DNA of 64,000 nt, taken from sequence record OW967251.1; one strand, 5' to 3'. Below, piece by piece: positions 8,387 through 44,112 of this stretch. The DNA comes from a plasmid. The notes beneath the pieces are model-generated. The model was not told the DNA's origin. It was given only the letters and a program-made list of their open reading frames with translations, and made no database searches. The first letter of the stretch is position 1; each line of letters starts with the position of its first letter. Position numbers and translations under genes: made by a program.

Positions 8387-10120
8387 TCAGCATGCGACGA
8401 GGTGCCCGTCGCCAAAATCGGTAAAGCGCTGCGGTACTCTCTGATAGCCGATGGGTTTGATCGGTTCTGGTCTTATCGGCATTGCGCTGGTGGCTCGGGG
8501 TTGCCGTCTTTGCTGAACGTCAGGTATAGGAACGGCGCTGAGCAAGTGCTGAGTATAAGGATGCTGCGGATGGTGCAACACTCGATCTCGTGGGCCGATC
8601 TCCACGAGCTGGCCGCCAAACATCACCGCTACCCGGTGGCAGATGCGCTCCACCACCGCCATATCATGGGAAATAAACAGATAGCTGAGCCGATAGCGCT
8701 GACGCAAATCTTCCAGCAGCGTCAGCACCTGCGCCTGTACTGAAACATCCAGCGCGGAAACCGATTCATCGGCGATGATCACTTTCGGGTTCAGCGCCAG
8801 CGCGCGGGCAATGCAAATGCGCTGGCGCTGGCCGCCGGAAAACTGGTGCGGATAACGCCGCATCGCTTCCGCTGGCAGGCCGACCTGCTGCAATAGCTGC
8901 GCCACCCGCTCCGTGCGCTGTACTGCGGGCATCTGCTCATGAATCAGCAGCGGCTCCCCAACCAGGTCGAAAATAGTTTTGCGCGGATTGAGCGCCGCCC
9001 AGGGATCCTGAAACACCATCTGCAAATCGCGGCGTACCGCTCTTAACGCCTCGTCCTTCAGGCCGTGCAGCTCCTGTCCGTTAAGCTGCGCGCTGCCGCT
9101 AAATGGCACCATATTCATCAGCGCTTTTGCCGTCGTCGATTTACCGCAGCCGCTTTCACCGACGATGCCCAACGTCTCGCCGGGGAAAAGATCGAAGCTG
9201 ACGCCATCGACGGCATGGACTTCGCGACGCACGCGCAGGCCGTCGCCGCGCACCGGAAAGCGCACGCTGAGGTCGCGGACGCTGAGCAACGGTCGCGTCG
9301 CCTCGACCGGCGCCAGCGCGGGCGCCTGGCCCAGCACCGGTACCGCCTGCAACAGCTGGCGGGTATAAGCCGCCTGCGGCGAGGTAAACAGCGTTTTTGC
9401 CGGAGCCTGCTCCATGATTTTGCCGTGACTCATGACCAGCACATCATCGGCCATTTCTGCCACCACTCCCATATCGTGGGTGATCAACAGCAGGCTGGTG
9501 GAAAACGCCTGCTGCAGTTCGCGCATCAACTCGAGGATCTGCGCCTGAATAGTGACGTCGAGGGCCGTGGTCGGCTCATCGGCAATCAGCACCTGTGGCT
9601 GGCACAGCATTGCCATGGCGATCATCACCCGCTGGCGCATACCGCCGGAAAGCTCGTGCGGATACTGTTGCAGGCGCTTCTCCACATGACTGATTTTGAC
9701 CGCGTCCAGCATCGTGCTGACCCGGCTGCGCCGTTCACGGCGGCCCAGCACTTCGTGGCGTTGCAGCGTCTCTTCCAGCTGCTGGCCCACCGTCATCAGC
9801 GGATTGAGCGAGGTCATCGGTTCCTGAAAAATCATGGCAACCGACTTGCCGCGCAGCAACTGCATTTGCCGCTCCGGCAGGCTGAGCAAATCCTGGTTAT
9901 CAAAAATAATCGCGCCGCCTGGAATCTGTGCCTCCTCCGGAAGCAAACCCATGATCGCCAGCGAAGTCAGCGATTTACCGCTGCCCGACTCGCCGGCAAT
10001 GCACAGAGTTTTTCCCGGCCAGAGCGCAAAGCTGACGTCATCCACCACCCGCTGTGTACCAAACTGGATCGACAGGCGCTCGACCGAGAGCAGCGGCGCC
10101 GGAAATAGGACTGCTGACAT
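8387..10120 (-). CDS. ABC transporter ATP-binding protein, fused double-ATPase (DppD/DppF- or GsiA-like)
   Basis: Two Walker A motifs ([16 protein letters not shown]), two [13 protein letters not shown] signatures and two Walker B motifs. The start MSAVLF has the RBS taggagcg. Confidence 0.85.
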
Positions 10121-10127
10121 AACGCTC

Positions 10128-11075
10128 CTAATTAAACACGCTGTTGGGAAAATAGAACGACACCACCCAGTTAGGCCGATCGACGATTTCGCTGATGCGC
10201 AGATCGCCGCACACGGAGCAGAGCATATAGGCCTCTTCCGCCGACATCCCTTGTTCGCGGCACAGCGCATCGATGGTATAGCTTACCGCGTCGCGGGCGG
10301 CGGTCATCAGGTCAGGGCCAATGCCGGTGAAGGCGCTGTAGCCGTGCCGATCCAGATGTTGGGTCACTGGGCCAGGGGTGGCGAAACGCGGCGTTTTCAG
10401 CGGCATATCTTTAACCACTTCCAGCTTCACCACCACGTCCATCGCGCTTTCAATCGCCGTGCCGCAGACTTCACCATCGCCCTGCGCGGCGTGGGTGTCA
10501 CCAATAGAAAACAACGCGCCTTCTACTTCCACCGGTAGCCATAATGTGCAGCCAGCGGCCAGATCGCGAATATCCAGATTGCCGCCCACGCGGCGCGGCG
10601 GCACCACCGAATGATGGCCCGCGGCGGCGGGAGCGACGCCGAGGGTACCGGCGAAGGGTTTCAGCGGTACGCGGCCATATCGGCCAAAGGCGCAGGGGGT
10701 TAAGCCCTGGCGGTCATATTGCCACAGCGTCAGCGCCGGATCAGAAAACTGATCGGCCAGCAGGCCGAAGCCCGGGATATTCGCAGTCCAGCCAAAGCCG
10801 CTGGGACGAAAGGATTCCAGCGTCACCTTTAGCGCATCGCCCGGCTGAGCGCCTTCCACATAGACCGGGCCACTGACCGGGTTGAGCTTATCAAACGGCA
10901 GCGTTGGGATATCCGCTGCGGTAGAACCGGCGTTGAACCAGCCGTTAGCCGCATCCAGGCAGTGAAACTCCAGTTGGCTGCCGGAAGCTACGTGCAGGAC
11001 CGGGCTCAGGCTGTTATCCCAGCCGAAATGATGTTGAGCATGATGAATGGTCTTCACCAGACAATTTTGGCACAT
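10128..11075 (-). CDS. Acetamidase/formamidase (FmdA_AmdA) family hydrolase
   Basis: 315 aa. Its overall similarity to FmdA/AmdA-family enzymes is recognisable. The stop overlaps the RBS of the downstream ATPase gene. Confidence 0.7.
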   Translation of the reverse strand: MCQNCLVKTIHHAQHHFGWDNSLSPVLHVASGSQLEFHCLDAANGWFNAGSTAADIPTLPFDKLNPVSGPVYVEGAQPGDALKVTLESFRPSGFGWTANIPGFGLLADQFSDPALTLWQYDRQGLTPCAFGRYGRVPLKPFAGTLGVAPAAAGHHSVVPPRRVGGNLDIRDLAAGCTLWLPVEVEGALFSIGDTHAAQGDGEVCGTAIESAMDVVVKLEVVKDMPLKTPRFATPGPVTQHLDRHGYSAFTGIGPDLMTAARDAVSYTIDALCREQGMSAEEAYMLCSVCGDLRISEIVDRPNWVVSFYFPNSVFN

Positions 11076-33775: not shown

Positions 33776-34827
33776 GGCTTTGTTGAATAAATCGAACTTT
33801 TGCTGAGTTGAAGGATCAGATCACGTATCTTCCCGACAACGCAGACCGTTCCGTGGCAAAGCAAAAGTTCAAAATCACCAACTGGCCCACCTACAATAAA
33901 GCCCTCATCAACCGTGGCTCCATAACTTTCTGGCTGGATGATGAAGCTATTCAGGCCTGGTATGAGTCAGCAACACCTTCTTCACGAGGCAGACCTCAGC
34001 GCTATTCTGACCTTGCCATCACGACTGTGCTGGTCATTAAACGCGTATTCAGGCTGACCCTGCGCGCTGCGCAGGGCTTTATTGATTCCATTTTTTCTCT
34101 GATGAACGTTCCGCTACGCTGCCCGGATTACAGCTGTGTCAGCAGGCGGGCAAAGTCGGTTAATGTCAGTTTCAAAACGCCCACCCGGGGTGAAATCGCA
34201 CACCTGGTAATTGATTCCACCGGGATGAAGGTCTTCGGTGAAGGCGAGTGGAAAGTCAAAAAGCATGGCCAGGAACGCCGCCGTATCTGGCGTAAGCTGC
34301 ATCTCGCCGTTGACAGTAAAACACATGAAATCATCTGCGCTGACCTGTCGCTGAACAACGTTACGGACTCAGAGGCCTTCCCCGGGTCTTATCCGGCAGA
34401 CTCACAGAAAAATCAGGGCAGCATCGGCAGACGGCGCTTACGACACCCGGCTCTGTCACGATGAACTGCGGCGTAAGAAAATCAGCGCGCTTATCCCACC
34501 CCGAAAAGGTGCGGGTTACTGGCCCGGTGAATATGCAGACCGTAACCGTGCAGTGGCTAATCAGCGAATGACCGGGAGTAATGCGCGGTGGAAATGGACA
34601 ACAGATTACAACCGTCGCTCGATAGCGGAAACGGCGATGTACCGGGTAAAACAGCTGTTCGGGGGTTCACTGACGCTGCGTGACTACGATGGTCAGGTTG
34701 CGGAGGCTATGGCCCTGGTACGAGCGCTGAACAAAATGACGAAAGCAAGTATGCCTGAAAGCGTGCGTATTGCCTGAAAACACAACCCGCTACGGGGGAG
34801 ACTTACCCGAAATCTGATTTATTCAAC
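33776..34827 (+). mobile_element. IS903-like (IS5 family) insertion sequence with 18-bp IRs, inserted 60 bp after lacY where lacA would be
   Basis: The left IR is ggctttgttgaataaatcgaac at 33776. The right IR is cggctttgttgaataaatcagatttcg (reverse complement) at 34800-34827. The element is about 1052 bp. Confidence 0.85.
33808..34777 (+). pseudogene. IS903-type transposase, interrupted by a frameshift (33808-34464 and 34553-34777)
   Basis: An intact IS903 transposase is a single ~307 aa ORF. Here the reading frame breaks near 34440-34550. Confidence 0.6.
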
Positions 34828-35400
34828 AAAGCCGTCTGTCGTTTCCACTAGTCCTCCTATGGCATATAACAGTGCGTTATACCGGTCCCGCAAGGTCGGC
34901 TTCCTTGCAAGCCAGATTACCTTGTAAGGTCAGAAAGTCCAATGACAGCTTTATGTACGAAGCAGTCATTGAGCTACTACGTATAAATGACCGCTCCTGG
35001 CCTACAGCAGACAAGCTTAGGATGCTGAAGGTCTGCTGAGAGCGATAAACGGAAATTCGAGACGGTATAGTCTCTAAAAGCTTCCCTGCCATAAAGTTGC
35101 CGAGATTCTCAGCGAATAGGTAAGTATCATCATACAGTGGTCAGATGTGCATCCGCAGTACATTTGCTCGCATGTTAACGTAGCAGTAGTACAACATCAT
35201 TTAGAGACGAATCGCCTAACAGGTTTTAACACCTTAAAATTTCACTGCTGGTTAAACACATTATTAAATGATTTTTATCATTTAAATCATTGGGTTAATT
35301 TTAATTGTGATTTGCTTTTAACCCTCGCAATTTAGAAGTATTATTTTGAGATTAATCCACTTGCCCTGCCTTCATCACTGCTTGTAAATATGCGTGAAGA

Positions 35401-37731
35401 ATGATTTTAAGGTTATATATCATGGAGTTATTGAATTTTTTGGCGGCGATTTTTGTCATTTACTTGTTGTTTTTTAGAAAGAAAAAACGTAAATCTCCAA
35501 AGTCTTATGCTTCAGACCCCGTGAAAGCACCGCCAAAAGAATGGCTCGCTGACATCAAGAAAAAAGAGGCGGTTGTGCGAAACGATGATAGTGAAGACGA
35601 TAACCTTGCAACTTTTACATTGAGCGGTGGCCGGGGTGTTGAACTTCGGGTGACAACCAATCATTACCGCAACACCTCAAAGTCAGCAGGTGCACTAGCT
35701 CGATGGGTACTTCCGGGTGAGATGATAACTGTAGCTGGTGTAGCAATTAGCGGTGGCCACATTTACGTGGGGCAACGTATGAAGCCCTCCGGTCAGGAAT
35801 CAGGCGGCTATTATGACGATGGAAGTGAGGCATCATTAATTGATGACACATGTAAGATAAAACCTACTTCTTATCTTTACGAGGACAGTTCATTAGGATA
35901 CTGGCCCAGTTTTTCCTCTCTTTCCCCAGAAGCACGCGGTGCGTATGTCAGTTGGCTTGCCAGCGATAGGTCTGATCCATCGTGTCCTATCGGCTATGTT
36001 TTTATCTACCTCTACGGCCTGGAAAGAAAAGCGCTCGTAGATTCCACTGACCCAAAATTCCCTGATGCTGAGTTCCGTAATCTGTTCAATGAAGTCGCTC
36101 GGTTAAGATCGATATTCATTGAGAACCGCTCCTTCCGTGGATATTCGACCCAATTACTCGAAGCCATGTCTATTCTGCGCCCGAACATGGGCTTAGCCAC
36201 TGAGCTCGATAGCAATTCAGGTTTCAGCAACAGCATGCAATTTAAGCTGGCTCTTGCAAAAACTGTACATGAAGGAGTTCCTGTATCAGCTGAACTGGCG
36301 TTGAACTGGGTAATAAACCACACCGAGTATTCGCTGCGTACCCCGGCTCGCCGCTGTGCTAAAGAGTTTGCTGCACTTTTCAAACGGCGTTACACCCTCA
36401 AATATGGTGAAGGGATGGTCGTTAAGGCGAATAAAACGCGCCTGAGGTTAGATTACACACCAGCAAGTCCTAGTTTGCGAGGTGTTCGACTTCCTGTTCC
36501 CGACCTGCCTGATCCAAGTGCGTTGAAGAGCCCTGTCCAGAAAATTATGGCTCTTGCCGATATATGTACAGATGAACTTGATGCTTATAGTCGCTACCTT
36601 GGTAGGAAAGGTACGTCAGTCAATGATACGGCTGCAATTATGCTGCTCCCTTCAGAGATAGTTAATGAAAGCGCAGAAAAAATATTAAGCTCATTCAAAC
36701 GCTGGGCTGATGAGGCGATCCTCGTCAAGGAGGGGTTAGTCTCAGTTGCTGACTTTTGGGCACATATGAATGCCAGTTGCCCCAATAAGATCAATAAAAA
36801 AGAGGCCGATTTGATGCAGGCCTTTGCTCTGAAGATGGGTTACGGTCTGGCACCTGACCCGTATTATCACCATGTGAAGGCGGATGTTGATGGGACACTT
36901 GTTCTATTCCCTGCCGCCGAAGGTGGACGCTTCTCACCTTCTCCTGAATTTATCTCAGCCGTAATGACGCTCAGATTAGGGGCGATGGTCGCCTTGATTG
37001 ACGATTCTCTTGATCAAGCTGAACAGAAAGTGCTTGAGAATGCCATCAACAACAATCCTGGCTTCACCGATGATGAAAAACGCTCTCTACATGCGTATTT
37101 AACGTGGCAACTTCATACCCCAGCCAATATGACAGGAATGAAAAGTAGGATTGAGTTGATGGGGGCCGCGGAAAAAGCTGCTGTGGGTAAGGTTATCGTT
37201 AGTGTTGCCTGTTCGGATGGGACAATAGCGCCTGCCGAAATCAAACAGCTTGAGAAGATTTATTCAAGTTTGGGGCTGGATCCCTCATCTGTCTCGAGCA
37301 ATATCCATCAGCATTCCGCAACTGAACATGATCTCGTCTCGTCTGTACCAACTGATCAGCCAGCAGCAGGGTTCACACTGGATGCTAATGTACTTGCCCG
37401 CCACGAATCTGCCACGGATGATGTTCGTAAATTGCTGAACACAATTTTCACCGAAGAAGAACCGGAAGAGCCAGAAAGCGCTCCAGCCTCATCAACGGAG
37501 GCGGGGGGACTTGACTCCGCACATAGCCAGCTTTATCGCAGTTTGCTGGAGAAAGAACAGTGGTCCCGAAAAGAGGCGACAGAATTGTGCGGAAATTTGA
37601 ATTTGATGCTCGGCGGTGCGCTTGAGGTGATCAATGACTGGTCCTATGCGGTGGTTGATGCTCCAGTACTGGACGATGCCGATGATGATATCTGGGTTGA
37701 CCTGGAAATTGCCAAAGAATTAGAGGGATAG
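35401..37731 (+). CDS. SngA-like TerB-N/TerB/TerB-C protein with an N-terminal transmembrane anchor (Shango-like system, gene 1)
   Basis: 776 aa. A hydrophobic helix (LLNFLAAIFVIYLLFF) is followed by RKKKRK. Two central TerB-like repeats are present (GAMVALIDDSLDQAEQKVLE..; VIVSVACSDGTIAPAEIKQLEKIYSSLGLD). The C-terminus matches the TerB-C-like motif (LDSAHSQLYRSLLEKEQWSRKEATELCGNLNLMLGGALEVINDW). An alternative start is M8 at 35422, which has an AAGG RBS. Confidence 0.6.
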   Translation: MILRLYIMELLNFLAAIFVIYLLFFRKKKRKSPKSYASDPVKAPPKEWLADIKKKEAVVRNDDSEDDNLATFTLSGGRGVELRVTTNHYRNTSKSAGALARWVLPGEMITVAGVAISGGHIYVGQRMKPSGQESGGYYDDGSEASLIDDTCKIKPTSYLYEDSSLGYWPSFSSLSPEARGAYVSWLASDRSDPSCPIGYVFIYLYGLERKALVDSTDPKFPDAEFRNLFNEVARLRSIFIENRSFRGYSTQLLEAMSILRPNMGLATELDSNSGFSNSMQFKLALAKTVHEGVPVSAELALNWVINHTEYSLRTPARRCAKEFAALFKRRYTLKYGEGMVVKANKTRLRLDYTPASPSLRGVRLPVPDLPDPSALKSPVQKIMALADICTDELDAYSRYLGRKGTSVNDTAAIMLLPSEIVNESAEKILSSFKRWADEAILVKEGLVSVADFWAHMNASCPNKINKKEADLMQAFALKMGYGLAPDPYYHHVKADVDGTLVLFPAAEGGRFSPSPEFISAVMTLRLGAMVALIDDSLDQAEQKVLENAINNNPGFTDDEKRSLHAYLTWQLHTPANMTGMKSRIELMGAAEKAAVGKVIVSVACSDGTIAPAEIKQLEKIYSSLGLDPSSVSSNIHQHSATEHDLVSSVPTDQPAAGFTLDANVLARHESATDDVRKLLNTIFTEEEPEEPESAPASSTEAGGLDSAHSQLYRSLLEKEQWSRKEATELCGNLNLMLGGALEVINDWSYAVVDAPVLDDADDDIWVDLEIAKELEG

Positions 37732-37734
37732 TGA

Positions 37735-39051
37735 ATGTCTGTAACACGTATAAGAGTGAAAGAACGCGACGCTATTATTCAGTCACTTAAGTCAGGTGTA
37801 ACGCCAAGGATAGGCATTCAGCATATCCAGGTTGGCCGCGTGAATGAGATCACCGCTCTCCATCAGGATATTGAGAGGATTGCTGACGGTGGTGCAAGCT
37901 TCAGACTTATCATCGGTGAATATGGTTCTGGTAAAACGTTCTTTCTGAGTGTTGTGCGCTCTATTGCGCTGGAGAAGAAGTTGGTGTCAGTCAGTGCTGA
38001 CCTTTCTCCTGACAGACGTATTCACTCATCGGGAGGTCAGGCTCGTAATCTTTATTCTGAGCTCATGAAAAACATGTCCACCAGAAACAAGCCGGATGGT
38101 AATGCGTTACTTAGCGTTGTTGAAAGGTTCGTTACGGAGGCAAGGAAGGAAGCTGACACGGACGGCTCCGAGGTTTCATCAGTTATTCATAAACGCCTGG
38201 CAGCACTATCAGATATGGTCGGTGGATATGACTTTGCGAAGGTCATTGATGCATTCTGGCGGGGGCATGAGCAGGATAACGAAACGCTAAAATCCAATGC
38301 CATTCGCTGGTTGCGTGGAGAGTACACTACTAAAACTGATGCCCGTCACGATCTCGACGTTCGGACTATTATCTCAGACGCATCATTCTATGATTCTTTG
38401 AAGCTGATGAGCCTTTTTGTCCGCCAGGCAGGCTATGCCGGTCTTTTGGTCAGCCTCGACGAAATGGTGAACCTCTTGAAGCTGAATAATACGCAAGCAA
38501 GAACAGCGAACTACGAACAGATTTTGCGGATCCTGAATGACTGCCTGCAAGGCTCAGCCGAGAACATTGGTTTTATCCTCGGGGGTACGCCAGAGTTTCT
38601 TTTCGATCCGCGTAAAGGTCTTTACAGCTATGAGGCGCTCCAGTCGCGTCTGGCGGAAAACCGGTTCGCGCAAAAAGCAGGAGTGATTGACTACTCATCC
38701 CCCACTTTGCATCTTGCCAGCCTCACCCCTGAGGAACTGTATATTTTGCTGAGAAATCTTCGTCATGTTTATGCCGGTGGAGATCCAGAGAATTATCTGG
38801 TACCAGATGAGGCACTGACTGGATTCCTGCATCACTGTAGTAAAACCATTGGAGACGCTTACTTCCGTACCCCCCGTAATACCATAAAAGGTTTCCTGGA
38901 CATGCTGGCCGTGCTGGAACAAAACAGAACGATGAACTGGCAAACACTAATCGAGGGTGTGGCGATTGAAGAGGACCGGCCCAGCGATATGGATGACACC
39001 ACTACGGAGGAAAGCGATGACGACGACGGACTGGCGAACTTCAAACTATGA
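37735..39051 (+). CDS. SngB-like P-loop ATPase (DUF2791/BrxD-like), Shango-like system gene 2
   Basis: 438 aa. Walker A is GEYGSGKTF and Walker B is LLVSLDEMV. The C-terminal tail is acidic. The start lies 4 nt after the gene 1 stop. Confidence 0.6.
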   Translation: MSVTRIRVKERDAIIQSLKSGVTPRIGIQHIQVGRVNEITALHQDIERIADGGASFRLIIGEYGSGKTFFLSVVRSIALEKKLVSVSADLSPDRRIHSSGGQARNLYSELMKNMSTRNKPDGNALLSVVERFVTEARKEADTDGSEVSSVIHKRLAALSDMVGGYDFAKVIDAFWRGHEQDNETLKSNAIRWLRGEYTTKTDARHDLDVRTIISDASFYDSLKLMSLFVRQAGYAGLLVSLDEMVNLLKLNNTQARTANYEQILRILNDCLQGSAENIGFILGGTPEFLFDPRKGLYSYEALQSRLAENRFAQKAGVIDYSSPTLHLASLTPEELYILLRNLRHVYAGGDPENYLVPDEALTGFLHHCSKTIGDAYFRTPRNTIKGFLDMLAVLEQNRTMNWQTLIEGVAIEEDRPSDMDDTTTEESDDDDGLANFKL

Positions 39052-41243
39052 GCAGTGCCTACGATAGCCTCGATCCCCGCGTCCGTAAGTGGGTTTACAA
39101 GCAGGGGTGGTCGACATTAAGGCCCTTGCAGGAGAGTTCTATCCCGGCAATTTTAGCCCGTGATCGAGACGTGCTAATCAGTGCAGGTACAGCAGCGGGT
39201 AAAACAGAGGCTTTCTTTCTTCCTGCCTGTTCGGCAGTTGCAGATCTCACGAATGGATTTGGCATCGTCTATATCAGTCCGTTGAAGGCATTGATTAACG
39301 ATCAGTACCGTCGTCTTGGGAGCCTTGGAGATGCATTGGAAATGCCAGTGACTCCCTGGCACGGGGATGTACCACAAAGCAAAAAGAAGAAGGCTCGGAC
39401 GAACCCTGCTGGCATTTTACTGATTACACCTGAGTCACTTGAGTCTTTGCTCATAAATTCAATGGGCTGGCTCAAACAGGCGTTTTCTTCAGTCGCATAC
39501 ATCGTTATTGATGAGTTTCATGCTTTTATTGGTTCAGAGCGTGGTGTACAGCTGCTTTCTCTGCTCAATAGAATTGACCATGTGCTAGGATGCCAGGTAA
39601 ATCCAATTCCCCGCGTTGCGTTGAGTGCCACGCTGGGGGAACTGGAGAAAGTGCCCGAAATGTTGCGCCCGGACAAACGACTCCCCTGCGTAACTGTTAC
39701 AGATAGTAATAGCATGGCCACTCTTCAGGTACAGGTCAAAGGGTACCTGGAGCGAGTGATCCAAAATGAGGAAGAACTTCAGAGTTCAGCTGAACATGAC
39801 GTTTGCGCTGACATTTTTAGACTTTGCCGTGGCGATTCTCATTTGGTCTTTGCAAACAGCCGAAAACGCACTGAAAGCATTGCGGCAACGCTGAGCGACA
39901 TGTGTGAGGAACAAATTGTTCCGAATGAATTTTTCCCCCACCATGGTTCCCTTGCCAAGGAATTACGTGAGGTGCTTGAATCTCGTCTTCAGAAAGGAAA
40001 TTTGCCCACAACAGCTGTTTGTACAATGACGCTTGAGTTGGGAATTGATATCGGTAAGGTTAAATCGGTTATCCAAGTTACGCCTCCGCATTCTGTTTCC
40101 AGTTTGCGCCAGCGAATGGGGCGTTCTGGGCGACGCGATTCCCCGTCAGTACTCAGAATGCTAATTACAGAAAATGAGCTTACTGTGAGTAGCAGTATCG
40201 TTGATCACCTACGACTCCAGTTGGTGCAGTCGATGGCAATGATCAGGTTGATGATCTCTAAACAATGGTTTGAGCCTGCCGATTCCCGGCAGATGCATTA
40301 CTCCACGCTGCTACACCAGATTCTTGCAATTACCGCACAATGGGGTGGAGTTCGTGCCGACCAGCTCTGGTCACAACTATGCCAGACAGGGCCGTTCAGA
40401 AATGTAGATTTAAACGATTTCAAAAGCCTGCTTAAACATATGGGAGCATGTGGCCTACTCACTCAACTTGCTAGCGGCGAAATGGTTGTTGGGGCAGAGG
40501 GGGAGAAACTGACTAACCATTACACTTTTTATGCCGTGTTCAATACACCAGAAGAGTTCCGCATTATCACCGGAAACAGAACCCTTGGAACAGTGCCTGT
40601 GGACTCCCCACTGCTACCAGACCAACACATCATCTTCGGTGGGCGGCGCTGGAAAGTGACAGAGATCGAGACAGAGAAAAAAGTTATCTATGTAGAGGCA
40701 ACCAAAGGCGGTCAGCCACCACAATTTAGTGGGGGAGGTATGTCTGTTCATGATGCCGTTCGTCAGGAAATGCTCGCTATCTATAGGGAAGGTGATTACC
40801 GCATAGCAATAGGTAGCAAGAAAGTAGATTATGCCGATACTGCCGCCAGAAACCTATTTGCGGAAGGCTGTAGTAACTTTCAGCGTTTTAAACTTCAAAA
40901 TGAGTGTTTTATTACGAGTGGACAACACTGTTACGTAATACCCTGGATGGGGGATAAAGTTGTCAATACGATTACAGCCTTGCTCATACGTTGTGGTTTT
41001 AAAGCAAATTCATTTGCTGGCGTTATAGAAATCGATAACTCCAGTGTAGCTTCCGTTCAGCACGCGCTGAAAGAAATGCTGTTGTCAGGCTTGCCATCTG
41101 CATTTGATCTTGCCACAGATGTTCCAGAAAAGTACTTAGATAAATATGACGAGTATTTACCAGAGTCCCTTCTTGCGAAAGGGTATGGTGCAAAGGCGTA
41201 TGAAACAGAAGGTACGCGCATCTGGTTGCAGAAACATCTTTAG
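39048..41243 (+). CDS. SngC-like superfamily-2 DEAD/DEAH-box helicase (Lhr/BrxHI-like), Shango-like system gene 3
   Basis: 731 aa. Motif I is AGTAAGKTEAF, motif II is VIDEFH, the SAT-like motif is LSATLG, and motif VI is QRMGRSGRR. The start overlaps the gene 2 stop as ATGA. Confidence 0.65.
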   Translation: MSSAYDSLDPRVRKWVYKQGWSTLRPLQESSIPAILARDRDVLISAGTAAGKTEAFFLPACSAVADLTNGFGIVYISPLKALINDQYRRLGSLGDALEMPVTPWHGDVPQSKKKKARTNPAGILLITPESLESLLINSMGWLKQAFSSVAYIVIDEFHAFIGSERGVQLLSLLNRIDHVLGCQVNPIPRVALSATLGELEKVPEMLRPDKRLPCVTVTDSNSMATLQVQVKGYLERVIQNEEELQSSAEHDVCADIFRLCRGDSHLVFANSRKRTESIAATLSDMCEEQIVPNEFFPHHGSLAKELREVLESRLQKGNLPTTAVCTMTLELGIDIGKVKSVIQVTPPHSVSSLRQRMGRSGRRDSPSVLRMLITENELTVSSSIVDHLRLQLVQSMAMIRLMISKQWFEPADSRQMHYSTLLHQILAITAQWGGVRADQLWSQLCQTGPFRNVDLNDFKSLLKHMGACGLLTQLASGEMVVGAEGEKLTNHYTFYAVFNTPEEFRIITGNRTLGTVPVDSPLLPDQHIIFGGRRWKVTEIETEKKVIYVEATKGGQPPQFSGGGMSVHDAVRQEMLAIYREGDYRIAIGSKKVDYADTAARNLFAEGCSNFQRFKLQNECFITSGQHCYVIPWMGDKVVNTITALLIRCGFKANSFAGVIEIDNSSVASVQHALKEMLLSGLPSAFDLATDVPEKYLDKYDEYLPESLLAKGYGAKAYETEGTRIWLQKHL

Positions 41244-41265
41244 TAATCTGGATATGTAATCAGGG

Positions 41266-41308
41266 TATAAATAAGACATATATACCCTGAATTTTTTATT
41301 TCCCTGTA
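41266..41308. terminator. Bidirectional intrinsic terminator after the helicase gene
   Basis: cagggtataaataagacatatataccctg forms a stem, followed by aatttttt. Confidence 0.55.
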
Positions 41309-41424
41309 GATTTACTAGGCTTTAGTCCCGGGGTATTACCAGGAGTATCTTTATTATCACGTCGACGTTGATCCGGTTTTCCTGTCGATTTAGCAATTGG
41401 TTTTGGACCAGGTTTAAGACCCAT
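41296..41424 (-). CDS. Small Lys/Pro/Gly-rich ORF (42 aa), convergent with the Shango-like operon
   Basis: MGLKPGPKPIAKSTGKPDQRRRDNKDTPGNTPGLKPSKSTGK, with a good RBS (aaaggataac-N4-ATG). It falls below the ORF-track cut-off, and its function is unknown. Confidence 0.25.
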   Translation of the reverse strand: MGLKPGPKPIAKSTGKPDQRRRDNKDTPGNTPGLKPSKSTGK

Positions 41425-42689: not shown

Positions 42690-43547
42690 TTATAGGGGGA
42701 CAGTGGCCAGTCGCGTGTAGTTGTTCCCGCGCGACAGCAGCATGCGCTCCTGCACACGGCGCTCAACCTCACGCTTCAGCGCTTCTTTATCGCCCATGAA
42801 GCGGCCGGTGGCGTATTCGCGGGTCAGTTGCTGACGCACGCGCGTCTCGATGTCATGACGCTGCCGTGATGCATCCCGCCGTGCAGTATCCCGCTTACGG
42901 CCGTGAGATTTACGCTCAGCCTGATAGCTGCGAAAACGCTCACGCACAAACCGCCACGCTTTTGCGATCAGTTCGTCCATCTCCAGGGGTTTCAGTTTCT
43001 GCTTTTTGCGCTGCAGGTTTTCCCACTCCACACGGCTGCGGCGCGCGGCCACCACAGCCACCTCAGAAACGTCAAGCGCGGAAAACAGAGCCGGGGTGAA
43101 GGTGATATCGGTCGGGATGTTACAGCCGATCTGCGGGTCATATTCAGTCTGATAGGTGATGAGCCCCAGCTCGGCCAGAAACTTCAGCGCCCGGGTGGCA
43201 CGGCTGACTGACAGGTTGCCGCTCCTGGACTCGGTGGCCAGTCCACACTCGATGGCCATATTGGTAATCGAGCGCTGCACGCGATTGGCCAGCGGATCAT
43301 AGTGAAAACACATTGCCTGCAGTAGCGCGTCAATTGCACGCCGGCGCAACAGGGGTGGCATCCTGTGCCGCTTACCCAGCGAACGCAAAAACGCCACATG
43401 AATGGAAAAATCAAAACGGGACGTGAAGCCTTCGGCTTTCGCCATCAGCTTACGGCAGAACGGCAGGGTCTTTTTCCCTTCACGCGGCGTGAATACCGGA
43501 TTCGGGTTTTTAACCTGTGAATAGTGGTTTTGAAGGATATCAGTCAC
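42690..43547 (-). CDS. repA: IncFII replication initiator RepA1
   Basis: 285 aa. Extended blocks recalled from R100/R1 RepA1 are present ([11 protein letters not shown]..., [86 protein letters not shown]). Confidence 0.9.
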
Positions 43548-43559
43548 CGCTTCCTGCGC

Positions 43560-43800
43560 TTATGTTGCACGGAAGGAGCGAATGACACAGAAACTGATCT
43601 TGAAGTTTTCTGAGCATGTACATATACTCCCCGCATAGAGCAACACGTTCTATGCAGTTTATGAAGGCCCCGTTAATCTTTTCCTTCCGCCAAGATTGAA
43701 GAAGATTATCGGGGTTTTTGCTTTTCTGGTCCCGGGTAGATACCTCATCAGAACCAGTTCCCTGCCACCTTAGGGCGTGGCACACCCAAAATTATTCAGA
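43560..43800. ncRNA. copA: repA leader / tap region expected to encode the CopA antisense RNA on the plus strand (approximate)
   Basis: Inferred from the conserved IncFII arrangement copB - copA/tap - repA1. Exact RNA ends were not determined from sequence. Confidence 0.35.
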
Positions 43801-43833: not shown

Positions 43834-44112
43834 TCAAGAATGTGAAGTCTTTACATCTATAAGACCACGTTCTGTAAGCTCTCGCTCGAGGAGTTTCTCG
43901 ATAAACTGGGCTTGTGTCAGACCTTCTTCCTCACAAACCGCTATCATCACGTCCTTTAGTGGGTTTTTAACAAAAACCTTAACTTCTTTATGAGTTTCGC
44001 GTTTCCGCGCAATTGCAGCAAGCTGCCTCTCACTGGCAGACATTGGCTTACCTTTCCGGTATGCACGTTTTGCATTCGTAGAGGAAGTGGTTTTATCTGC
44101 TGAACGTGACAT
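43834..44112 (-). CDS. repA2: IncFII copy-number repressor RepA2 (CopB)
   Basis: 92 aa basic protein ([39 protein letters not shown]...) typical of CopB. Confidence 0.85.

Follow-up and report, generated by a model that had tools for sequence, protein, structure and literature searches.

The plasmid stretch analysed here, a window of 64,000 nucleotides from sequence record OW967251.1, carries three open reading frames (ORFs) on its plus strand, at 35401-37731 (776 amino acids, aa), 37735-39051 (438 aa) and 39048-41243 (731 aa). An initial annotation, made by a model from the sequence and a list of its ORFs, had read them as a candidate Shango-like anti-phage operon composed of a TerB protein, a DUF2791-type ATPase and an Lhr-like helicase. 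Our comparison of the sequences indicates that the operon is very probably an intact, plasmid-borne Shango system, sngA-sngB-sngC, which is a close allele of the system of Escherichia coli KTE113 and has a role in defence.

The three co-oriented and tightly coupled genes lie where they had been placed, between an element resembling the insertion sequence (IS) IS903 and the IncFII replicon, and the transposase there is broken. The ATGA overlap described for the second and third genes is present between sngB and sngC, while the gap between sngA and sngB, given earlier as 4 nucleotides (nt), is in fact 3 nt (a TAG stop, TGA, then the sngB ATG). The beginning of the first gene also needs revision: the ORF from 35401 exists, but the 776-aa start at that position is less likely than one at 35422. 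The most likely extent of sngA is 35422..37731 (plus strand, 769 aa) because RefSeq annotates a 769-aa protein on identical plasmids, the exact 769-aa sequence stands at the head of a 2,719-member cluster and listed homologues of full length measure 766-778 aa, the validated SngA of KTE113 has 769 aa and begins likewise, and the E. coli allele lacks the upstream ATG (35401) but conserves the TAAGGTTAT that precedes 35422. Downstream follow sngB (37735..39051, plus strand, 438 aa), which encodes a BrxD-like P-loop ATPase, and sngC (39048..41243, plus strand, 731 aa), which encodes an Lhr-like superfamily 2 (SF2) helicase; all three ORFs are full length.

The identification is carried by searches with hidden Markov models (HMMs) from Pfam (gathering scores), PADLOC (defence models) and NCBIfam (equivalog cut-offs). 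Searches of Pfam and PADLOC had been proposed in advance as a check, and they returned the predicted result: TerB-N and TerB-C are found in the first protein, and the triad does not fall into a housekeeping family. The TerB regions described for SngA correspond to Pfam matches to TerB_N (1.6e-46), TerB (2e-07) and TerB_C (5.5e-26), all above their gathering scores. The DUF2791-type ATPase is borne out by a full-length match of SngB to PF10923 (BrxC_BrxD, formerly DUF2791; E 2.4e-150), and the Lhr-like SF2 helicase by matches of SngC to DEAD and Helicase_C, with a sub-threshold match to the Lhr winged helix (WH_Lhr). The motifs quoted earlier, GEYGSGKT and Walker B in the ATPase and motifs I, II and VI in the helicase, are all present, and the ATPase and helicase motifs as a whole are intact. 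Among PADLOC models the best matches are SngA (8.8e-105), SngB (617.6 bits, 3.4e-186, positions 1-439 of 439) and SngC (936 bits, 4.6e-282, end to end), and the wording "candidate Shango-like" proves to have been too cautious. The resemblance to the BREX (bacteriophage exclusion) proteins BrxD and BrxHI that had been pointed out is real as well, these being the clear second-best PADLOC models for SngB (BrxD, 147.7 bits, 1.4e-43) and SngC (BrxHI, 383 bits, 5.4e-115, nearly full length). In NCBIfam, none of the three proteins reaches a housekeeping equivalog, SngC staying below both the ligase-associated and the Lhr repair-helicase models (DEXH_lig_assoc, 231 bits against a cut-off of 850; PRK09751, 110 against 1496); SngB scores 145 bits with the BrxD equivalog, for which the cut-off is 350.

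The reference for the family is the validated system SG206 of E. coli KTE113, with SngA, SngB and SngC of 769, 438 and 732 aa (Millman et al. 2022). Over residues 1-399 of each protein, the span that the KTE113 comparison covers, the window's proteins are 76% (SngA), 97% (SngB) and 90% (SngC) identical to those of KTE113, and ungapped identities to a complete chromosomal allele of E. coli are 81%, 97% and 88%, respectively, with most of the divergence of SngA from that allele falling in its N-terminal 300 residues. Gene order, the lengths of SngA and SngB and an upstream block are common to the KTE113 system and the window copy, and SngC has 731 aa here against 732; the window copy differs in being plasmid-borne and a different allele, with ~83% DNA identity to E. 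coli chromosomal copies. The Shango system of Pseudomonas aeruginosa PA14 (PA14_RS11735-45), likewise validated by experiment, is alike in gene architecture, a TerB-like protein being encoded together with an ATPase and a DEAD/DEAH helicase within a defence hotspot, but the PA14 copy lies in the core chromosomal hotspot cDHS1 (Johnson et al. 2023).

The shared upstream block (35306..35362, plus strand) probably serves as the operon's own promoter or regulatory region. Over its ~57 nt the plasmid is ~93% identical to the chromosomal allele of E. coli, beyond its upstream edge the two sequences are unrelated, and the block also lies within the native-promoter fragment that was cloned from KTE113. 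A sigma-70 scan gave fewer matches than shuffled sequences and called no consensus match inside the block.

We consider the operon a regular member of the Shango family because the SngA, SngB and SngC models are its top matches, its proteins are close to those of KTE113 and of the chromosomal allele, and the upstream block is common to them; its three genes are adjacent and co-oriented in the order A-B-C, and its closest comparison is a validated system. This identity is correct but already known: Shango has been named and validated in close relatives, and a 2026 preprint already reports it on this plasmid type.

The gene neighbourhood was assessed from the annotation of the identical plasmid stretch, which corresponds to window positions ~12,000-60,900. 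As had been remarked, no methyltransferase or PglZ gene is annotated there; neither are the other core genes of BREX type 2, PglX and BrxC/PglY, and the BrxC model gives only 14 bits, from the P-loop. BREX type 2 is thus alike in that BrxD and BrxHI are homologous to SngB and SngC, with SngB also matching PF10923, and unlike in that PglZ, PglX and BrxC are missing around the operon, a TerB protein stands in their stead and the BrxD cut-off is not reached. To our knowledge, BREX includes no TerB protein. No ter genes of a tellurite cluster are annotated in the same span, and the TerB domain of SngA is one part of a 769-aa multidomain protein.

Domains and motifs of SngA, SngB and SngC

SngA starts with a hydrophobic helix (residues 2-18) and the polybasic stretch RKKKRK, followed by a disordered linker (22-84), TerB_N (105-316), a conserved middle region (317-524), TerB (525-631) and TerB_C, which lies at 652-775 in the 776-aa numbering of the initial annotation. 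The predicted structure (predicted local distance difference test score, pLDDT, 86.7) has the same helix at 2-18 and disorder at 22-84, a structured core at 90-640 and TerB_C at 655-769. The N-terminal segment (residues 1-21, window 35422-35485), which precedes RKKKRK, is the sole strongly hydrophobic segment of the protein. At least 70 of 99 diverse SngA representatives (29-67% identity) have a comparable N-terminal hydrophobic segment, whose sequence is not conserved, and this predicted membrane anchor is a feature that recurs family-wide. We found no statement on membrane tethering of SngA in the accessible parts of the Shango literature searched.

Elsewhere in SngA, the structural model contains helix (H) and strand (E) successions of the form H-E-H-H-E-E at 416-497 and 699-759, from which we infer two winged helices. 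No enzymatic or pore-forming fold was found in SngA, Pfam scans of the middle region (317-524) and of the N-terminus gave nothing meaningful, and searches of Protein Data Bank (PDB) sequences identified no relative of SngA or SngB.

In SngB, Walker A is GEYGSGKT at residues 61-68 (K67) and Walker B is LLVSLDE at 237-243 (D242), and G61, G64, G66, K67 and D242 are invariant among 59 orthologues. The protein ends in an acidic linker and the tail DDDDGLANFKL (residues ~407-438; window 38953-39048). A tail of the form D-D-x-L-A-x-F-[KR]-L terminates all 59 orthologues, which come from many phyla, and the acidic linker before it varies in length. The tail has the appearance of a docking peptide, in the style of the C-terminal tail of the single-stranded DNA-binding protein SSB.

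SngC contains motif I (GTAAGKT, 47-53), motif II (DEFH, 155-158), motif III (SAT, 193-195) and motif VI (QRMGRSGR, 355-362). The nearest solved structures to its motor core and winged helix are those of Lhr (5v9x, 7lhl) and MrfA (6znp), which are 3'-to-5' single-strand translocases that act in DNA repair. SngC is unlike these repair helicases in that its C-terminal ~270 aa, searched as a profile, have no relative among PDB sequences, and in that its genomic context is one of defence rather than repair. The AlphaFold2 model of SngC (pLDDT 60.9; predicted template modelling score 0.38) is too poor for its C-terminal domain to be read, the underlying alignment being shallow (at least 63% identity), and Foldseek adds no more than a confirmation that the protein is Lhr- or MrfA-like.

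Distribution and genomic setting

The SngA family comprises 4,011 representatives at 50% identity (E <= 1e-3). We compared 80 genome loci from Proteobacteria, Bacteroidota, Actinomycetota, Cyanobacteria, Chloroflexota, Spirochaetes, Planctomycetota and other groups; sngB follows sngA in all 80, and the order A-B-C on one strand is kept in each of the 71 loci with enough downstream sequence, most of which also keep the B/C overlap. In the most distant bin, SngB averages 66% identity, SngC 48% and SngA 36%, a gradient (SngB > SngC > SngA) that fits a putative fast-evolving sensor paired with a constrained ATPase core. Homologues of the system are found in integrase-flanked islands, beside AbiE, Wadjet, a SIR2-STAND protein and similar genes.

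The window matches IncFIB/IncFII conjugative plasmids of Klebsiella pneumoniae at 100% over 24.9 kb, with the gene order fec, lac, IS remnant, Shango, repA, phospholipase D gene, klebicin gene and tra. Copies with at least 99% identity to the operon are present in 487-502 plasmid records, most of them from Klebsiella. A second allele, of ~84% identity, is carried by Salmonella enterica plasmids of ~285-320 kb, many of poultry origin, and Shango is carried by two or more plasmid lineages that recur in many isolates. A further allele, ~83% identical in DNA, is chromosomal in ~440 of 5,426 complete E. coli genomes. The stretch homologous to this chromosomal allele starts at 35305 and stops at ~41560, and because homology is confined to that span we delimit the acquired cassette as 35305-~41560 (~6.3 kb). 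Shango is a separately acquired cassette on this pKPN3-like IncFIB(K)/IncFII(K) conjugative plasmid of K. pneumoniae. At 0.479, the guanine-cytosine content of the operon is below that of lacIZY and that of the entire window (0.534 each), in agreement with the lower value that had been remarked relative to the flanks.

At the 3' end of the operon, where a shared terminator had been proposed, we find a plausible intrinsic terminator (41260..41303, plus strand) made up of the hairpin CAGGGTATA...TATACCCTG and a T-run. The hairpin occupies 41260-41290 and is followed by six T residues at 41292-41297; the fold has -16.4 kcal/mol (z = -2.6 relative to shuffled sequences), and a simple scan missed it because its loop exceeds 8 nt. 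The terminator is kept in the E. coli allele, with substitutions only in the loop. Rfam gave no signal in or beside the operon, its matches being limited to the IncFII CopA RNA and pseudoknot signals.

Insertions into Shango operons were seen in several settings. In some sister plasmids the operon is broken by ISVsa5, IS26, ISKpn26 or IS1B; the Dickeya solani locus has a DDE_3 transposase gene (9752-10789 of that locus) between sngB and sngC; and a table in Millman et al. lists an sngA split by a transposase. These insertions suggest occasional inactivation and possibly a fitness cost.

Upstream of the cassette lies a degenerate IS5-family DDE transposase in two plus-strand fragments (33808-34464 and 34553-34777; ORFs of 218 and 74 aa, with matches to DDE_Tnp_1_5 and DDE_Tnp_1). 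The family assignment is compatible with the IS903 group, and the broken transposase ends ~530 nt upstream of 35305, where homology to the chromosomal Shango cassette starts. Downstream, the IncFII replicon has a complete control region, consisting of RepA (42690-43547, minus strand), CopB (RepB-RCR_reg; 43834-44112, minus strand) and the CopA antisense RNA (43635-43723, plus strand; Rfam match, 82 bits). Beyond the replicon, the identical plasmid has a gene for a phospholipase D-family nuclease and a klebicin/S-type pyocin gene with its immunity gene.

A 42-residue reading frame beside sngC

An ORF of 42 aa, rich in Lys, Pro and Gly (MGLKPGPKPIAKSTGKPDQRRRDNKDTPGNTPGLKPSKSTGK), lies 53 nt beyond sngC on the minus strand (41296..41424), convergent with it and preceded by an AAGGA Shine-Dalgarno sequence; it has no match in Pfam or Rfam. 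Compared with the E. coli chromosomal copy, it carries 11 synonymous and 0 non-synonymous substitutions, the protein being identical; the corresponding counts are 11 and 2 against avian pathogenic E. coli (APEC) and 9 and 3 against Dickeya. Judged by these substitution patterns, the putative gene is under very strong purifying selection.

The DNA of this ORF occurs in 870 of 5,426 complete E. coli genomes, about twice the number that have the full Shango system. In other places it adjoins an nSTAND3/Mrr protein, a KAP NTPase, AbiH or a SIR2-STAND protein, it often lies 3' of a 1,210-aa AAA_11/AAA_12 helicase, and in E. coli 042 and APEC it comes after an IbrA-IbrB-PerC-like module. Across bacteria it was found in only 4 of the 80 Shango loci and is therefore not a core component of the system. 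We rejected it as a fourth Shango gene, given its absence from the other 76 loci and its position beside unrelated defence cargo. It resembles a gene from the backbone or boundary of a family of enterobacterial islands; it travels with the cassette, and by length arithmetic it is probably inside the 6,700-bp KTE113 clone.

Proposed mode of action and competing explanations

The domain content of the three proteins suggests a scheme that we put forward tentatively, as a possible reading toward which we lean without confidence, in which SngA is a membrane sensor, SngB a switch or loader and SngC the effector of direct interference. SngA would be held at the cytoplasmic face of the inner membrane by its single N-terminal helix, with the polybasic stretch inside the cell, and its non-enzymatic body, built from TerB_N, winged-helix-like, TerB and TerB_C regions, would serve as a fast-evolving sensor and scaffold. 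It may sense a cue of infection at the membrane, for example DNA entry or perturbation of the envelope; Millman et al. have proposed "membrane surveillance" for TerB systems. Of the three proteins SngB is the most conserved; it would then act as an ATP-driven switch or loader and would probably dock on a partner through its C-terminal tail. SngC, as an Lhr-like 3'-to-5' translocase or helicase, would be the effector on phage nucleic acid, for instance by unwinding replication or R-loop intermediates or by stripping proteins. The outcome would be direct, non-suicidal interference, since the Pfam and PADLOC searches found no nuclease or toxin encoded in the operon, and this outcome also fits the modest protection seen on plates, which is roughly 10-fold in E. 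coli and 10-100-fold for the PA14 system (Johnson et al. 2023).

Several points weigh against the reading of the operon as an active defence system working in this way. We found no phage test of this plasmid allele and no published Shango mechanism in the literature searched, and every mechanistic step is accordingly drawn from domain content. The operon is interrupted by an IS element in some sister plasmids and genomes; it is therefore dispensable and may be costly. In addition, the poor model of SngC (pLDDT 60.9) means that an effector activity in its C-terminal 270 aa is possible.

One may postulate an alternative scenario of abortive infection, in which phage triggers the membrane-bound SngA, SngB and SngC drive it, and the outcome is membrane damage or arrest and the death of the infected cell. 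The predicted membrane anchor of SngA would suit this scenario, as would the use of membrane effectors by other TerB systems, such as the transmembrane helices of Bunzi and the pore-forming toxin of Dionysus. These two systems resemble Shango in their TerB domain and membrane association; in them, however, TerB is paired with the transmembrane or pore-forming effectors, whereas Shango pairs TerB with an ATPase and a helicase. SngA moreover has a single hydrophobic segment and no pore-forming or enzymatic fold that we could find, and no toxin gene accompanies it in the operon by Pfam or PADLOC. We favour direct interference over abortive infection because of this lack of a nuclease or toxin and because the PA14 system protected liquid cultures over a wide range of phage doses (Johnson et al. 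2023); suicide of the host cell is in our estimate unlikely.

A slightly less likely explanation is conflict between mobile elements, in which the operon would mainly keep conjugative or transforming DNA, or phage-plasmids, from entering at the membrane instead of defending against lytic phage; such a function is compatible with phage defence. In its favour, 533 of the 647 records with the operon are conjugative plasmids, the second allele resides on Salmonella megaplasmids of ~285-320 kb, and the pairing of a sensor tethered to the membrane with a relative of the helicases Lhr and MrfA would, by analogy, suit the single-stranded DNA that enters in conjugation. Close alleles are chromosomal in the ~440 E. 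coli genomes, however, many ordinary defence systems are commonly carried by plasmids, and the Shango alleles that have been tested act on phages; no anti-plasmid test of Shango was found in the literature searched. A bolder combination of these observations appears improbable to us: the SngA sensor and a single-strand translocase would together watch DNA crossing the inner membrane, mainly as an entry-exclusion, anti-plasmid or anti-phage-plasmid device, and the basic 42-aa protein would be a regulator or cofactor common to several defence cassettes of enterobacterial islands.

The remaining two explanations fare considerably worse. That the operon is a housekeeping or stress module, providing Ter-type resistance to tellurite or stress or Lhr-type DNA repair and no immunity, is very improbable: public annotations do name SngA a "tellurite resistance TerB family protein" and SngC an "Lhr-like helicase", and Lhr and MrfA function in DNA repair, but no terZACDE genes are annotated nearby, the repair-helicase models score far under their cut-offs (231 against 850 bits), the system is patchily distributed over islands and plasmids with a GC content below that of its flanks, and a system 76-97% identical has direct experimental anti-phage activity. 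We rejected both the Ter module and the Lhr repair helicase on HMM scores and gene context. Least probable of all is a remnant of BREX type 2 that has lost its PglZ and methyltransferase core, which is effectively refuted by HMM scores and gene context: although BrxD and BrxHI are second-best for SngB and SngC and SngB matches PF10923, the Sng models outscore the Brx models 2.4 to 4 times in bits, the BrxD equivalog score is below its cut-off, and across phyla the three genes form a unit of their own in 71 of 71 loci.

The central claim, that the operon is a Shango system, has been established by others, and what we add on the SngA anchor, the order of conservation and the SngB tail is incremental. 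The residual value of the analysis lies in these structural handles on the Shango mechanism and in the 42-aa ORF; for mutagenesis, the handles are the SngA anchor, the lack of an enzyme fold in SngA, the conservation order SngB > SngC > SngA and the SngB tail. For the biology of the host, an intact system of phage defence comes with a very common family of Klebsiella resistance plasmids, and because the Shango operon rides widely distributed plasmids, their spread can change phage susceptibility. Plasmid-borne Shango is thus relevant to the choice of phages for therapy against Klebsiella pneumoniae.

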